Source of the DNA: Alphaproteobacteria bacterium
GTDB taxonomy: Bacteria; Pseudomonadota; Alphaproteobacteria; CAAGCB01; CAG-977
Length of the DNA: 64,000 nt
Assembly: GCA_900768875.1 (NCBI GenBank)
Contig: CAAGEP010000003.1
Coordinates: forward strand, 474,433-538,432
Direction of reading: 5' to 3'
The notes beneath the pieces are model-generated. The model made no database searches. It saw nothing but the letters and a program-made list of their open reading frames with translations, and was not told the DNA's origin. The translations under genes and the position numbers were made by a program. Positions 33,806-38,125 of the stretch are shown one piece after another. Position 1 is the stretch's first letter, and each line of letters opens with the position of its first letter.

Positions 33806-34207
33806 ATGCCCGCTTATGAAACGGTATTGAAGAACAAAGACGCTTCGGCGCAGGAATTGGCGCAAGCCGTCGCGGCGTTAATCGAAGCGGGAACGGACAG
33901 CGCCGTTTTGCTGTTTATGGCGGTTGAAGCCGACAACCTGCCCGCTGTCAAACTGTTGATGGAATCGGGCGCAAATCCGACTTTGGTTGTCGCGAACGAA
34001 CAAAACGCCGTGTCACTGGCGATTAACGAAGAAAAGTGGGAAATTTTGGATTATCTGATGACCCGCGATTTCAACCGCACCATGCTGTTTGAAGGCATTG
34101 CCGAACTCAGCCCGTCCATGATTGATTATCTGGAAGGCAAATATATCAAAGTCCCGCACGAATTGAAAAACGGCGAAGATTTGGATTGGATTAACCAGAT
34201 CAATTAA
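33806..34207 (+). CDS. Small ankyrin-repeat protein.
   Basis: 133 aa with about 3 ANK repeats (LLFMAVEADNLPAVKLLMESGANPTL...). No signal peptide. Confidence 0.7.
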   Translation: MPAYETVLKNKDASAQELAQAVAALIEAGTDSAVLLFMAVEADNLPAVKLLMESGANPTLVVANEQNAVSLAINEEKWEILDYLMTRDFNRTMLFEGIAELSPSMIDYLEGKYIKVPHELKNGEDLDWINQIN

Positions 34208-34251
34208 CAGTCCCCCTCAAAACATCCCCTTTTGGACAGAGTTTAATTTTA

Positions 34252-34266
34252 GCGGGAGTGGGATTT
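34252..34266. repeat. 15-bp direct repeat of the tRNA-Met T-loop/acceptor 3' segment (gcgggagtgggattt). Putative att scar.
   Basis: Exact copy of 34420-34434, 168 bp away in the same orientation. The intervening 148 bp is GC-rich with several short hairpins. Confidence 0.5.
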
Positions 34267-34380
34267 ATTCGGGGCTGTCGCCCCTCACCCCTGCGGGGCC
34301 GCCTTCACTGTCGTTCCGGCGTTGCCTGCGCTTCGCTTCGGCCGAACCTGAGAGATTCATTCACCAAACTCCTTTACCCA

Positions 34381-34492: not shown

Positions 34493-34549
34493 ATAAAAAC
34501 TATATCGGCTTGCGATATGGACTTTATATATGCGGCTGCCGTTTGAAAG

Positions 34550-35410
34550 TCAAGGACTTTTTTGAAATTTTGCCTTTTTTTTGTTTGAACGGATGATTTC
34601 CGCATATTCCATGGCCAGCTTTTGCCCTTCTTCCACCTGTTGCGGCGTCATCGTATTCAGCAGGCGTTCCAAATCGGGCGACACTTCGACCAAATTTTGC
34701 ACGTTCGGAAACAGTTCCGACAAGCTCAACACCAGCCACGCATACGCTTTGGACGGTTCGGCCATGCTGTACGCATACAGTTCCGACAATTTCCGGCCTG
34801 CATCGACATACCCCGTTTTTGCCGCTTTCGTCAGCCACTCTATCGCCTTTTCATCGCTTTGCGGCACGCCTTTTCCGTCTTCGTACAACAACCCCAAACG
34901 GGTTTGAGCCTGCGGCATTCCCATTTTTGCCGCCGTTTCATAAAGCTCTGCGGCACGGGCAAAATCTTGCTGAACGCCTTTTCCCGTTTCAGCCAAAATT
35001 CCCAATTTGACCATTGCTTCGGCGTTTCCCTGCCGCACTTGAACAGCCAGCCATTCGGCATTTTCTTCCGCCCGAAGAGTATTGAAATGTTCGTGCCCCG
35101 ACTTGATATAAATCATTTGCAATTGCGTCATGGCTTCTTGAGATCCGCGCGCCGCCGCCATATCATACCATTTTTTTGCCAAAGCCGGATTTTTTGCCAC
35201 GCCGCGCCTGCCGAACTGGTAAATCTTTCCCAACATCAACTGAGCTTCAACACTGTCGTTTCGGGCGGCTTGTTCCAACAACGGAAGAATCTCCGACGCG
35301 TTTTTGCCCTTCGCCTCCAAAGCGACCGCCTGTTCATAAGCCGTCTTTGCATCCAAAGCATACACGCGGGCAGACAGCAACAGCAGCACGGCCAGCAACA
35401 CCGTCCTCAT
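34550..35410 (-). CDS. Sel1-like/TPR repeat protein with a signal peptide.
   Basis: 286 aa. The signal peptide is MRTVLLAVLLLLSARVYA. Multiple Sel1 repeats follow (LGKIYQFGRRGVAKNPALAKKWYDMAAARG...). Confidence 0.75.
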   Translation of the reverse strand: MRTVLLAVLLLLSARVYALDAKTAYEQAVALEAKGKNASEILPLLEQAARNDSVEAQLMLGKIYQFGRRGVAKNPALAKKWYDMAAARGSQEAMTQLQMIYIKSGHEHFNTLRAEENAEWLAVQVRQGNAEAMVKLGILAETGKGVQQDFARAAELYETAAKMGMPQAQTRLGLLYEDGKGVPQSDEKAIEWLTKAAKTGYVDAGRKLSELYAYSMAEPSKAYAWLVLSLSELFPNVQNLVEVSPDLERLLNTMTPQQVEEGQKLAMEYAEIIRSNKKKAKFQKSP

Positions 35411-37689
35411 CGCGCGCTCCTTTTGAATTCGGCGATGTATTCATCCAGCAACGGCGTTGTTTCGACAATTTGATTCCACGGCAGAGATCCGTGAACCAAC
35501 ACGCGCACCGTTGCAGGCTTCCACCAATCGGGATATTCGGATTCGGGCAGGCGGTACGGCTGAAAAGATGCCATACCGGCAGGCAAGCGGGTGAATTCGT
35601 CAATAACGGCTTGGTCGAAGTTATCGTATTCGGCATCCGTTTCGGCGTTTTTCATATTGACGCCGCCCAAATACGATCCCGCAAAATTTACATTGCGCAA
35701 ATCGGCGTTTTCCAAATCGGCCAGCCGCAAATCCGTTTGCGACAAATCGATTGGATGTCCCAAATCCCGACGGATTCTTTTATCCGTCAACGCCTTCAAA
35801 GCCAAAGCCACATCGTCCGTCATCGGCTCTATCGGTTTGAACAAATCGGTCTGCGCCGACCAATGCCGCTGCTGTCTGACATATTCGGCCAAAATGTCCG
35901 CCGCGGCATTTTCCAGTTTTTCATCGCGCGCCGCCAAACACCCCAACGTGCAGATTGCCCACAGCCTGTCGTTCATTTCCGCCGGAGGATTGGCCAGCAA
36001 AGTCATCGCCCTTACCGCCATATTTTGGCCGCCGGATTTGCCCAAAAGCACGTCTTCGCACGCCGAACGGGAGCATTGGAACGGCTTGTTTTTCCACTTT
36101 TGACGATACAGGCGTTCATCGTAAGCCGCCGAATCAAAGTCGGGGAAATTTTTGGGCGGCAAAGTTTTTTTGTCAATGACGACGCGTCGGATTTCGTTTA
36201 AAGGCACGTCGGAAACAGCTGAAATATCCGCCCCGCCGAAATCGGCTTTGTAAAACACCGCATTGCCAAATATCAGATTGCCTTTGAAAACGGCTTTTCT
36301 GAAATCGGCGCGCGTCAAAACGGCATAATCCAAGTACGCATTGTCGAAAACGGCTTTGTAAAAAATCGATTGTTCAAAAGACACGCTTTTCATGTAGCAA
36401 TTCACACAGGTTACCTGCGTAAAATCCGCTTTGTTGGCGACAGCACCGTCCAGCACGACGTTGTCGAATACGGCCTGCCGAGCTTGAACATTGTCCATGT
36501 TCAGCCGGTAGGCCATGACATCCTGCCACGCGGTGTTGGCAATATTGGCGTCTTTCACGGACGAAAACGTTAAAACTGCATCGCGGAACTGCGTATTGCT
36601 TAAATCGGCTCCGTCAAAATTCGCCAGCGACGCATCAACGGAATGTAAATGTGAAAAGCGCATTTTCGCGCCTTTGAAAAAAGATTTTGACAGGTTGACG
36701 CCTTTGAACAGAACATCGTCCAATTCCGCCCCGTAAAACAAAGCTTCCGAAAAATCGGAATTCAAAAAATAAGCCCCTTTGAAAAAGGAATTTGAAAAAT
36801 TGTTGCCGGCCATTGTTCCTTGGGCGAACTCGGCCTTTTCAAAGTTGACATGCGACAAATCCAACGCATCGCATTTTTCTTTGCCGTAAACGGCTTCTGC
36901 GATTTCGACGCTTTTCTGCATATTGATATTTCTGCGGACGTCGTTGTTTGTCGGCGTGTAGTAGGGAGCCGGCCACGGATGGCATTTGCGCAAATAATCC
37001 GACACGGCCTGTTTCGCGGAACAGACCGTCCGGCCGTTGCTCAGATTATCCGTTGACATCAGCCAGTGCAAAGTCGAAAGAACGTCCGTCATATCGTCTT
37101 TACATTCTTTCAATTCGCCAAACGCCCACTCCGTCCATTCGCTTTTATCCTGCGGCCGCTTGTTTTCGGCAACGACGGGGGGCGTCAAACGGGCGTACGG
37201 CGCAAACGGAAGCGGACGGATTTTTGCTTCGGCTTTGACGGCTTTGACGGGGTTTTTCAAGGGATAAATTCTGACCTGCACGGGATTGGCTTCAGCCGCA
37301 GGTTTTGAAAAAAGTTTCGACTTGCGTTTCGTTTTCAGTGTTTCCGGCGGCAAAATCATCACCTTGGCGGGACTGAGAACCGCATCGACGGCTTGGTTGT
37401 TCGTCCACTTTGCCGGCTTGTCGTACAAAGAAACGCCGACCGTCGCATCCATACCGTGCGGATTGGGCTTGAGCGCGGAATCCGACGGCAAAGTGTTTGT
37501 TACCGCGCTGGTCAAAGTCCCCGAACGCGTCGGTGTTGTTTTGGATTCATGGAGGGAGTCCGTATGCGCCAAATCGGACACGGGCAAAAAAAACACCACG
37601 ACGTTTTTCGGCACGGCGGCGGCGATAACGGCAGACGACAGCAACGCCCCGCCGATTGACAGCCCCAGTTTTTTAAACTTTTTTGACAT
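35407..37689 (-). CDS. Large pentapeptide-repeat protein with a signal peptide.
   Basis: 760 aa. N-terminal signal peptide or anchor. A central run of about 40 pentapeptide repeats (ANFDGADLSNTQFRDAVLTF...) and a second short run near the C-terminus. Overlaps the Sel1 gene by 4 nt. Confidence 0.75.
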   Translation of the reverse strand: MSKKFKKLGLSIGGALLSSAVIAAAVPKNVVVFFLPVSDLAHTDSLHESKTTPTRSGTLTSAVTNTLPSDSALKPNPHGMDATVGVSLYDKPAKWTNNQAVDAVLSPAKVMILPPETLKTKRKSKLFSKPAAEANPVQVRIYPLKNPVKAVKAEAKIRPLPFAPYARLTPPVVAENKRPQDKSEWTEWAFGELKECKDDMTDVLSTLHWLMSTDNLSNGRTVCSAKQAVSDYLRKCHPWPAPYYTPTNNDVRRNINMQKSVEIAEAVYGKEKCDALDLSHVNFEKAEFAQGTMAGNNFSNSFFKGAYFLNSDFSEALFYGAELDDVLFKGVNLSKSFFKGAKMRFSHLHSVDASLANFDGADLSNTQFRDAVLTFSSVKDANIANTAWQDVMAYRLNMDNVQARQAVFDNVVLDGAVANKADFTQVTCVNCYMKSVSFEQSIFYKAVFDNAYLDYAVLTRADFRKAVFKGNLIFGNAVFYKADFGGADISAVSDVPLNEIRRVVIDKKTLPPKNFPDFDSAAYDERLYRQKWKNKPFQCSRSACEDVLLGKSGGQNMAVRAMTLLANPPAEMNDRLWAICTLGCLAARDEKLENAAADILAEYVRQQRHWSAQTDLFKPIEPMTDDVALALKALTDKRIRRDLGHPIDLSQTDLRLADLENADLRNVNFAGSYLGGVNMKNAETDAEYDNFDQAVIDEFTRLPAGMASFQPYRLPESEYPDWWKPATVRVLVHGSLPWNQIVETTPLLDEYIAEFKRSAR

Positions 37690-38125
37690 TGCGTTCCACC
37701 GTCGGCAGCCCCGCGCGCAACCAGCCGGCCAGCCCTTTGTCCAAAAGAGCGACGTCGGAAAAACCGCTTTGCTTCAACGCGTCACAAGCGTCATAAACGG
37801 CTTTTTCGTCACGCAGCCCGACGATAACAACGGGAGTTTGCTTGAATCCCGCCAGTCTGTCCGCCGTTTCAGCCAGCCGCAATTTCAATTCGGCGCACGG
37901 CATGTTGATTGCGCCGTCGACATGCCCGAACAAACCGTAAAATTCGCTTTTACTGCGAACGTCAATAATCAGCAAATCTTTGTTTTTCATATTTTTTTCC
38001 AAATCGCGGGGCGAAATGAAGACAGCGTTTTTTCCGCGGATTTTGCGTCGCAAAGCCGGAATCAAATGCACAACCGCGTGATATGCGAGCACGACGGCAA
38101 TCAGACCGATGACAAAGTTATTCAT
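37673..38125 (-). CDS. Membrane-anchored rhodanese-domain protein.
   Basis: 150 aa. N-terminal TM helix and a rhodanese fold (DLLIIDVRSKSEFYGLFGHVDGAINMP). Its 3' end overlaps the pentapeptide gene start by 17 nt. Confidence 0.7.
   Translation of the reverse strand: MNNFVIGLIAVVLAYHAVVHLIPALRRKIRGKNAVFISPRDLEKNMKNKDLLIIDVRSKSEFYGLFGHVDGAINMPCAELKLRLAETADRLAGFKQTPVVIVGLRDEKAVYDACDALKQSGFSDVALLDKGLAGWLRAGLPTVERNVKKV

Follow-up and report, generated by a model that had tools for sequence, protein, structure and literature searches.

The window, a 64,000-nt stretch of contig CAAGEP010000003.1 from an Alphaproteobacteria bacterium, carries a three-gene operon encoding a rhodanese-like membrane protein, a large pentapeptide-repeat protein (PRP), and a Sel1-repeat protein. 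A sequence-only reading of this DNA had grouped these proteins with the product of a nearby ankyrin-repeat gene as a set of host-interaction factors sitting at a tRNA integration site. In what follows, coordinates are positions within the window, "aa" denotes residues of each window protein, and the labels L003 to L038 denote the loci of relatives that were compared with it. The locus contains the following features:

37673-38125, minus strand: gene 1, the rhodanese gene (150 aa), for a predicted bitopic membrane protein with a Cys-less rhodanese-homology domain
35407-37689, minus strand: gene 2, the PRP gene (760 aa; Pfam Pentapeptide), for a predicted exported multi-domain protein
34550-35410, minus strand: gene 3, the Sel1 gene (286 aa; Pfam Sel1), for a predicted exported Sel1-repeat alpha-solenoid protein
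38126-38224: divergent intergenic region common to trmFO and the operon (99 nt)
38225-39574, plus strand: trmFO (NCBIfam TrmFO, 1.4e-207), heading trmFO-hpnC-hpnD-hpnE; the conserved anchor, outside the operon
34415-34492, minus strand: tRNA-Met(CAT) (ARAGORN; Rfam tRNA, 56.6 bits); the other border of the exchanged cassette described below
33806-34207, plus strand: ankyrin-repeat gene (133 aa; Pfam Ank_2), part of the original finding and outside the operon

ORF calling in the window recovers all four open reading frames at the coordinates originally claimed, and the domain calls are borne out by significant Pfam matches: Rhodanese (PF00581) on the 150-aa protein (2.4e-12; 47.6 bits against a cutoff of 22.2; aa 38-137), Pentapeptide on the 760-aa protein (4.9e-33, with Pentapeptide_4 and Pentapeptide_3 in addition), Sel1 on the 286-aa protein (5.5e-28), and Ank_2 on the ankyrin protein (8.7e-9; 36.3 bits against a gathering cutoff of 27.3; aa 36-109). 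From the coordinates, the PRP start lies inside the end of the rhodanese gene (17-nt overlap) and the Sel1 start lies on the PRP stop (4-nt overlap). The gene lists of relatives' loci show the same 17-nt overlap and the same PRP/Sel1 junction, in agreement with the proposal that these three genes form one translationally coupled operon. A catalytic domain is recognizable by Pfam in none of the three operon proteins, also when the PRP is searched in separate pieces, and none of the four proteins reaches an NCBIfam equivalog cutoff, with Qnr, MfpA, PipB2, PipB, HetL, ExoR, MerG, AlgK, MotX, GlpE, and MoeB all far below. A promoter and terminator scan of the locus returned nothing beyond shuffle expectation; it includes one weak promoter-like match on the minus strand (38231-38204).

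The operon is found in 20 species in a scan of one genome per GTDB species, including 'Acetobacter sp. CAG:977', and all 20 are metagenome-assembled genomes (MAGs) of uncultured Alphaproteobacteria from the human gut or the rumen. Wherever a homologue has a source label, that source is likewise a metagenome or MAG of the human gut or the rumen. The exact PRP protein recurs in an ENA metagenome assembly, on a scaffold of 612 kb, and on a Logan contig. Searched against 5.8 billion clusters, the PRP matched only 22 over its full length (37-99% identity, 748-780 aa), all other matches sharing the repeats only; the distribution of the rhodanese protein is as narrow, and the Sel1 gene follows the PRP gene in every locus long enough to show it. 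Whether these are conserved core genes, a check that had been suggested for relatives, thus receives a divided answer: they are core within the clade, and the homologue searches found no orthologues, housekeeping or other, outside uncultured Alphaproteobacteria.

The position of the operon is equally constant. In all 20 species, as far as the contigs reach, hpnC-trmFO is followed divergently by rhodanese-PRP-Sel1 (tblastn with the window proteins), and the same arrangement is seen on metagenome contigs. A profile of the middle domain of the PRP, run against 1.84 billion representatives, retrieved only 20 proteins, 12 of them distant. Those of the distant proteins that carry a source name belong to uncultured Alphaproteobacteria, one being labelled ADurb.Bin438 and one FACS1894186, and in 10 of 10 distant relatives scanned with Pfam the middle helical domain is directly followed by a short PRP. 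Two of the distant relatives could be placed on contigs. In L037, hpnE-hpnD-hpnC-trmFO lies divergent to a rhodanese gene, whose product is Cys-less and anchored by a transmembrane (TM) segment, and a 598-aa PRP-like gene; in L038, a superoxide dismutase (SOD) gene, hpnE, and trmFO lie divergent to a 754-aa PRP-like gene. The TrmFO proteins of these two loci are only 55-62% identical to that of the window, and a related gene beside trmFO at such a distance argues for an ancient origin of this position. The homologues of L037 and L038 lack the long 43-repeat helix of the window PRP, and neither locus has the Sel1 gene; the main helix and the Sel1 gene would therefore be later additions in the window's clade.

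Composition and gene content give no sign of mobility. The third-codon-position GC content (GC3) of the operon is 0.58-0.61, within one standard deviation of the long ORFs of the window (0.64 +/- 0.058). Precomputed Pfam lists show no integrase family within +/-10 kb, the plasmid and phage collections hold no match for the operon, and PADLOC has none for the rhodanese, PRP, or Sel1 proteins. By these comparisons, the operon appears to be old, vertically inherited, and specific to a group of uncultured Alphaproteobacteria from gut and rumen. One locus carrying the whole operon, L021 (CAVCSV010000035.1), is filed under 'Limosilactobacillus gorillae'; its TrmFO and HpnC are 94-95% identical to those of the window, and by these similarities it is evidently an alphaproteobacterial contig in a contaminated bin.

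Within this fixed position, the three genes are exchanged together as strongly diverged allele cassettes between close relatives. In nucleotide comparisons of the window with L007 and L010, identity is 98-100% along the trmFO-hpn flank and ~45-88% over the interval ~34500-38160, which covers exactly the three operon genes. The border near trmFO lies at ~38100-38160, identity to L007 being 98-100% from 38160 to the trmFO start; on the other side, the tRNA and spacer are 87-100% identical to L007 and L010. Synonymous divergence (dS) from L007 is 0.04 for trmFO/hpnC, 0.75 for the rhodanese gene, 0.90 for the PRP gene, and 1.8 for the Sel1 gene, with ratios of nonsynonymous to synonymous divergence (dN/dS) of 0.13-0.26. 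The old dS of the operon against 0.04 in the flanks points to old divergence joined by recombination rather than to fast protein evolution.

The trees tell the same story. Flank proteins group the window with L007 (99% identity) and L009 with L011 and L021 (97-99%), whereas the PRP and Sel1 proteins group the window with L009 (90% and 83%, respectively) and L007 with L021 (75%), and L011 stands apart in both the PRP (64-65%) and the Sel1 (69-74%) trees. The PRP and Sel1 trees therefore match each other and conflict with the flank tree. At least four allele classes, at 63-76% identity, exist among the genus-level clusters, and both the window's PRP class, with 80 sequences, and class B, with 159, are common. 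Within the PRP gene, too, the sequence is mosaic: aa 29-170 (37180-37605) show a dS of 0.28 to L007 against 0.89 to L009, and the rest of the gene shows the reverse, which places an intragenic recombination breakpoint near aa 165-170. Across four within-genus comparisons, dN/dS is 0.09-0.26 for the three operon genes, with dS saturated between allele classes; taken wherever dS yielded an estimate, the range is 0.09-0.27. All three are thus under purifying selection, and these ratios together with conservation in 20 species indicate that the genes are real.

The cassettes resemble allelic cassette loci between conserved genes, such as O-antigen and capsule loci and flagellin or pilin alleles, in having sharp borders in or next to conserved flanks, old alleles with saturated dS, and a locus tree in conflict with the flank tree. 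They differ in consisting of three homologous genes in constant order under purifying selection rather than a variable gene set, and the surface exposure of their products is putative. The persistence of old allele classes among near-identical genomes suggests that some part of the system is exposed to frequency-dependent pressure, for example from phage, bacteriocins, or host antibody.

The proposal of a tRNA integration site would make the operon a genomic island or cargo inserted at the tRNA-Met gene. The tRNA gene, which lies between the ankyrin gene and the operon, does abut the operon: it has the same orientation as Sel1 and follows the Sel1 stop after 57 nt. A copy of its 3' end occurs nearby:

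34252-34266: 15-nt direct copy of the tRNA-Met 3' end (original at 34420-34434), 150 nt beyond the tRNA

The repeat is represented by two exact copies against 0.02 expected by chance, and both copies are also present in L007. Homology between the window and close relatives breaks off at this copy, at 34252 for L007 and 34246 for L011 (blastn), and beyond the breakpoint the two sides have nothing in common: the window carries the ankyrin, flavodoxin, S21, and DUF6782 genes, L007 and L010 carry Fe-ADH, aldehyde dehydrogenase, CLC, and other genes. The 3' flank of the tRNA, on the ankyrin side, is therefore a real rearrangement point, and the 15-nt repeat may be an att scar or a tRNA-end repeat unit. 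Block replacement of the whole operon between close genomes could also be taken as island behavior.

However, both repeat and breakpoint are on the ankyrin side of the tRNA rather than the operon side, and the repeat, at a distance of just 150 nt from the tRNA, leaves all four genes outside the interval that it bounds. The operon is anchored to trmFO in 20 of 20 species, whereas the tRNA-Met gene adjoins Sel1 in only five of the 20 loci, all from the window's own genus (L007, L009, L010, L011, and L021), and is absent there from the other 15 scanned. The absence of an integrase family from the Pfam lists for +/-10 kb, ordinary GC3, and empty plasmid and phage searches point the same way, and block replacement is accounted for by homologous recombination in the conserved flanks. 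The genes past the breakpoint on the tRNA side include a ribosomal protein gene and clade-conserved genes, and no integrase was seen among them. We consider an island origin of the operon very improbable; synteny refutes it, and the kernel of the tRNA idea that survives is the breakpoint with its repeat on the ankyrin side.

Several minor features surround the tRNA. A GC-rich hairpin followed by a T run, noticed by eye, lies just past its 3' end (~34386-34414) and is absent from the scanner's list. An Rfam scan of 32000-39000 found the tRNA alone above threshold, with RtT, psRNA14, and S774 sub-threshold on or beside it; the RtT-like hit covers the spacer at 34247-34385. In every lineage, the region downstream of the operon varies.

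The ankyrin gene does not belong with the operon proteins, among which it had been grouped. Its product has 24 homologue clusters, the full-length ones at 55-98% identity, and all those with a source name are labelled Alphaproteobacteria. In more distant species the gene occupies a string, rnhB-ccrM-[DUF6782 x0-3]-ank, opposite the suf operon, where it follows a codirectional gene at a distance of 15-125 nt; L009 and the window's own lineage are the only cases in which it stands beside the PRP operon. Hydropathy reveals no export signal in the protein, and its only PADLOC hit is a weak one to the model PDC-M72A. Judged by synteny, it is a separate, clade-conserved gene of the ccrM/DUF6782 neighborhood and not an operon partner, and its product is probably cytoplasmic. 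Three tandem DUF6782 paralogues (putative HExxH metallopeptidases, the HExxH family to which the sequence-only reading referred) lie at 28035-32340 of the window. In relatives (L029-L036), ccrM and the small ankyrin gene are separated by zero to three codirectional DUF6782 genes, spaced 15-37 nt apart. This arrangement suggests that DUF6782 and the ankyrin protein may form a functional pair; our literature search found no paper mentioning DUF6782. A different ankyrin protein, of 342 aa with multiple repeats, occurs in the most divergent species (L003-L005, 17556-18594), its gene lying ~4 kb beyond Sel1 on the downstream side; there, a DNA methyltransferase gene (N6_N4_Mtase + ICEA) follows immediately downstream and, in L003 and L005, a type I restriction HsdR-like gene lies ~6 kb upstream.

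The product of gene 1 begins with a TM segment at aa 4-24 (Kyte-Doolittle hydropathy 2.4) followed by RRKIRGK, so by the positive-inside rule the rhodanese domain probably lies on the cytoplasmic face of the inner membrane. The earlier call of a rhodanese holds for the domain and fails for catalysis. At the column of the catalytic Cys, the window protein and 15 of 15 aligned relatives have Gly (VVIVG-LRDE[KN]), against CYHGNSS in E. coli GlpE. As the catalytic Cys is missing in all family members examined, including the distant L037 copy, which has a TM segment too, the domain is predicted to be non-catalytic; it could only bind something and would not transfer sulfur. The best Protein Data Bank (PDB) matches are domain 1 of 1yt8 and Alr3790 (3hix), neither of which shows a Cys opposite the window's Gly in these alignments, so the likeness is to rhodanese-homology domains that are Cys-less at the catalytic-loop position. 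In the solved chains, Alr3790 appears as a stand-alone domain and the 1yt8 domain as one of several tandem rhodanese domains, and the matched regions have no TM segment; the window protein differs in its single N-terminal TM helix, which would act as a tether, and in the coupling of its gene to those of predicted exported partners.

These results bear on the idea that the operon serves sulfur transfer or detoxification, or that its PRP protects gyrase as Qnr and MfpA do. The Rhodanese and Pentapeptide matches in Pfam, along with weak NCBIfam similarity to Qnr, MfpA, MoeB, and GlpE, are what would recommend it. A sulfurtransferase was rejected for want of the catalytic Cys, the GlpE and MoeB scores being far below cutoff as well. 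As for gyrase protection, the scores are 35 bits against a cutoff of 240 for Qnr and 31.9 against 360 for MfpA, and these proteins are cytoplasmic and of ~200 aa, whereas the window PRP is Cys-rich, 760 aa long, and predicted to be exported; a Qnr-like PRP was rejected on export and size. We give this idea next to no weight.

The PRP was modelled with AlphaFold2 from a 22-sequence alignment (mean predicted local distance difference test score, pLDDT, 71), and conservation of motifs and Cys was read from a homologue alignment. The model divides the protein as follows:

aa 1-170 (37180-37689, minus strand): predicted Sec-type signal (aa 1-~26), then a disordered linker; pLDDT <50
aa 171-275 (36865-37179, minus strand): four-helix domain with invariant C196, C223, C236, and C273
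aa 276-490 (36220-36864, minus strand): main right-handed quadrilateral beta-helix; 43 pentapeptides in ~11 coils
aa 500-645 (35755-36192, minus strand): HEAT/ARM-like helical domain with invariant C539, C544, C580, and C584
aa 646-760 (35407-35754, minus strand): second short PRP (aa 646-690), C-terminal beta-hairpin, and charged tail

The N-terminus, judged heuristically, comprises MSKKFKK and a 19-residue hydrophobic region ending at an I-A-A site; distant PRP homologues have clear A-x-A signal peptides. Although the linker is modelled with low confidence, its motifs GVSLYDK, PAKVLILPPE, and RIFPL are invariant or nearly so. The helices of the four-helix domain fall within aa 182-265 (pLDDT 83-92), and the main beta-helix is modelled mostly above 93 over aa 300-450. 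The count of about 40 pentapeptides given in the sequence-only reading is right for this main block, and a second short beta-helix at aa 646-690 adds 8-9, followed by a hairpin at aa 727-746. Between the two, the model's helical region spans aa 497-640 and resembles HEAT-like solenoids; no part of the PRP family is better conserved than this core, which carries the motif WA[LI]CT.GC..(4)DK.LE. The N- and C-terminal parts formerly described simply as unique can therefore be resolved into the linker, the Cys-containing four-helix domain, the HEAT-like domain, the second short PRP, and the beta-hairpin. The C-termini of the family are charged.

Ten Cys of the PRP are invariant or nearly so (196, 223, 236, 273, 428, 431, 539, 544, 580, and 584), which fits an oxidizing compartment. 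C236 and C273 precede the main helix, C539 and C544 come after it, and C428 and C431 are conserved too. The PRP is probably a disulfide-bonded, elongated scaffold. Foldseek with the whole model against the PDB returned mainly PRPs and a few other beta-helix proteins and no match for the other domains of the protein; Pfam, run on the non-PRP pieces with E up to 10, gave no credible match, the four-helix domain included. The match to Rfr32 (2g0y), 12th of 14 PDB matches, is weak (E 1.6e-4, aa 280-386 of the repeat block). Sequence variation is uneven along the PRP: between the window and other alleles of the genus, the four-helix domain is 38-46% identical and the second half of the main helix (PRP1b, aa 386-495) 44-58%, these two parts varying most, against 78-87% for the linker and 90-92% for the second short PRP, the least variable part.

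The product of gene 3 has a Sec-type signal peptide in the window and in 19 of 19 orthologues read, most with an A-x-A type site, and a lipobox Cys is absent from all of these; its PDB matches are generic Sel1 proteins. The signal peptides noted earlier on the Sel1 protein and the PRP and the membrane anchor on the rhodanese thus correspond to N-terminal hydrophobic segments in all three proteins. From these signals, we infer that the PRP and the Sel1 protein are exported to the periplasm or the cell surface.

Export brings back the proposal that the Sel1, PRP, and ankyrin proteins act on host cells as 'eukaryotic-like' effectors or secreted modulators, in the manner of Legionella LpnE/EnhC, Helicobacter Hcp, and Salmonella PipB2. 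It gains from the restriction of the families to gut- and rumen-associated uncultured Alphaproteobacteria and their uncultured relatives, from the predicted export of two of the proteins, and from an allele diversity in keeping with exposure to the host or to some other antagonist. It also counts in its favor that pathogens have Sec-secreted Sel1 proteins, such as Hcp and LpnE, that act on hosts. LpnE/EnhC, Salmonella PipB2/SopA, and E. coli NleL share repeat types with the window proteins and come from host-associated bacteria. Yet the window proteins have Sec signals and conserved Cys rather than signals for type III or type IV secretion systems (T3SS/T4SS), and T3SS/T4SS families are missing from the +/-10 kb gene lists of every locus. 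The effector models of NCBIfam are far below cutoff (PipB2, 41 bits against 354; PipB, 35 against 274; HECT effector of the SopA/NleL type, 23 against 500). An effector set has no need of the cytoplasm-facing membrane protein encoded by gene 1, the operon occupies a position fixed over deep divergence, that is, a core locus and not an island, and the ankyrin protein, with no signal for export, is encoded in synteny with ccrM and the suf operon. What stands of the sequence-only reading here is the broadly host-associated bearer, as the gut and rumen source labels indicate; that these genes are an effector set acting on the host is, in our judgment, unlikely.

The constant neighborhood of trmFO and the hpn genes suggests another role, in which the operon would be co-regulated with trmFO-hpnCDE via the 99-nt region and would help to build or stabilize a hopanoid-containing outer membrane. 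The divergent pairing with trmFO-hpnC-hpnD-hpnE holds in all 20 species, in L037, and, with hpnE only, in L038; genomes with strongly different operons share 98-100% identity in the intergenic sequence between 38160 and the trmFO start; and all the operon products are predicted envelope proteins. Against this, inertia may be enough to explain the conserved adjacency, Pfam and NCBIfam give no match to a known family for hopanoid transport or modification, trmFO, a tRNA methyltransferase gene, stands between the operon and the hpn genes, and allele cassettes would be unexpected for a lipid-handling machine. A hopanoid-related function therefore seems to us quite doubtful.

We favor, with moderate confidence, the interpretation that this is a translationally coupled operon of three non-enzymatic envelope proteins, lineage-specific and cassette-exchanged, with an envelope scaffold or sentinel role. 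Gene 1 would supply a bitopic inner-membrane protein whose Cys-less rhodanese domain faces the cytoplasm and has a binding role; gene 2, a Sec-exported scaffold with the order linker, four-helix Cys domain, 11-coil beta-helix, HEAT-like domain, short beta-helix, and hairpin; and gene 3, a Sec-exported Sel1 alpha-solenoid adaptor. The translational coupling, the co-inheritance, and the matching PRP and Sel1 trees suggest that the three products may assemble into one envelope complex of repeat scaffolds, with the pseudo-rhodanese as the cytoplasmic-side partner of the exported proteins. The most likely role, by analogy with described systems, would be structural or that of a 'sentinel', the module reporting on or setting outer-membrane state.

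The closest of these systems is YjbI/PerA of Caulobacter crescentus, a secreted PRP in the lipopolysaccharide layer that acts as an outer-membrane sentinel and silences the ChvGI and UzcSR envelope-stress systems (PMC12864828). YjbI consists of a secretion signal, a single beta-helix with two flanking Cys pairs, and a charged C-terminal tail on which its function depends (PMC12864828). Like the window PRP, it is an alphaproteobacterial, non-enzymatic envelope protein with an N-terminal secretion signal, a quadrilateral beta-helix with conserved Cys on both sides, and a charged C-terminal end. The window PRP differs in its 760-aa length, its 170-aa disordered linker, its four-helix and HEAT-like domains, its two beta-helices, and its ten conserved Cys, and it appears to have dedicated rhodanese-like and Sel1 partners, whereas no partner genes are mentioned in the description of YjbI (PMC12864828). 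The rhizobial periplasmic Sel1 protein ExoR, which inhibits ExoS/ChvG (PMC12864828), offers a parallel for gene 3: both are small, exported (by prediction in the window) alphaproteobacterial Sel1 alpha-solenoids, and ExoR acts through periplasmic protein-protein binding. Unlike ExoR, the window protein scores far under the model cutoff, has no ExoS/ChvG gene nearby, and is encoded by a gene coupled to the PRP gene. The comparison with YjbI and ExoR is thus one of analogy and not of family membership. Cyanobacterial and plastid PRPs of the lumen or periplasm (Rfr32, 2f3l/2g0y; TL15, 3n90) are likewise exported pentapeptide beta-helices with weak sequence matches to the window PRP, and Rfr32 (2g0y) has been called a YjbI orthologue (PMC12864828); they are single-domain proteins of 130-180 aa and share no accessory domains or operon partners with it.

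Several points weigh against the scaffold or sentinel interpretation. The window organism is uncultured, and complex formation is something we only infer. Signal peptides and topology were judged by eye and from hydropathy. No histidine kinase or response regulator appears in the +/-10 kb that the loci share, so a ChvGI-type link is pure analogy; the Sel1 protein reaches 32.8 bits against a cutoff of 450 on the ExoR model NF045484 (NCBIfam); and the similarity of the PRP to Rfr32 over aa 280-386 is, as given above, weak. As to balancing selection, no positive selection is directly apparent, crude Nei-Gojobori dN/dS per domain never exceeding 0.65, and the allele classes could instead reflect neutral introgression between species; the conspecificity of the window and L007 rests on ~8 kb of shared sequence at 96.7-99% identity. 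Our literature search found no paper combining PRP, Sel1, and rhodanese, and among the titles and abstracts returned for RF32 nothing on this gene set.

A more far-reaching version of the scaffold interpretation is a trans-envelope module, in which a surface-exposed giant PRP with its Sel1 adaptor would sense or shield the outer membrane and signal across the inner membrane to the pseudo-rhodanese, and the allele cassettes would be kept by frequency-dependent selection (phage, bacteriocins, or host IgA). We regard this as speculative and put only a small chance on it. If true, the operon would be a lineage-defining adaptation of gut Alphaproteobacteria and also their main variable surface determinant.

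Across the metagenomes with these genes, uncultured Alphaproteobacteria of gut and rumen are widespread, and the operon is among the few clearly lineage-specific, deeply conserved gene sets seen here for them. The function of exported PRPs is only beginning to be understood (Caulobacter YjbI, 2026), and a larger architecture with putative pseudo-rhodanese and Sel1 partners would widen the class; the operon names specific proteins as candidate interaction partners. Cassette exchange with borders exactly at the three genes makes the locus a candidate strain-typing marker, and it may be a target of phage or immune selection. For annotation, the lesson is that 'eukaryotic-like repeats next to a tRNA' do not amount to an effector island here.

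Beyond the operon, trmFO is followed by two SQS_PSY genes, an amine-oxidase-type gene, and then an Fe-SOD gene (Pfam/NCBIfam); the SQS_PSY pair and the amine-oxidase-type gene are, by our own reading, presumably hpnC, hpnD, and hpnE. The string trmFO-hpnC-hpnD-hpnE-(Fe-SOD), at 38225-42962 of the window, is kept in most loci read (L006 is without the SOD gene) and partly in very distant relatives. The trmFO stop and the hpnC start overlap by 4 nt (39571-39574), and such translational coupling of a tRNA methyltransferase gene to squalene/hopanoid genes is unusual. In L037, a Shufflon_N protein of >1200 aa is encoded at 11066-13797, ~3 kb from the distant PRP-like gene. The other flank of the window locus comprises a Flavodoxin_4 gene, rpsU (S21), and the three DUF6782 genes. 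The Flavodoxin_4 protein (33091-33642, minus strand) has a Sec-type signal peptide (MKKGLIFGAALLAALGFGTAQA/GE) and is a predicted extracytoplasmic flavodoxin-like protein.

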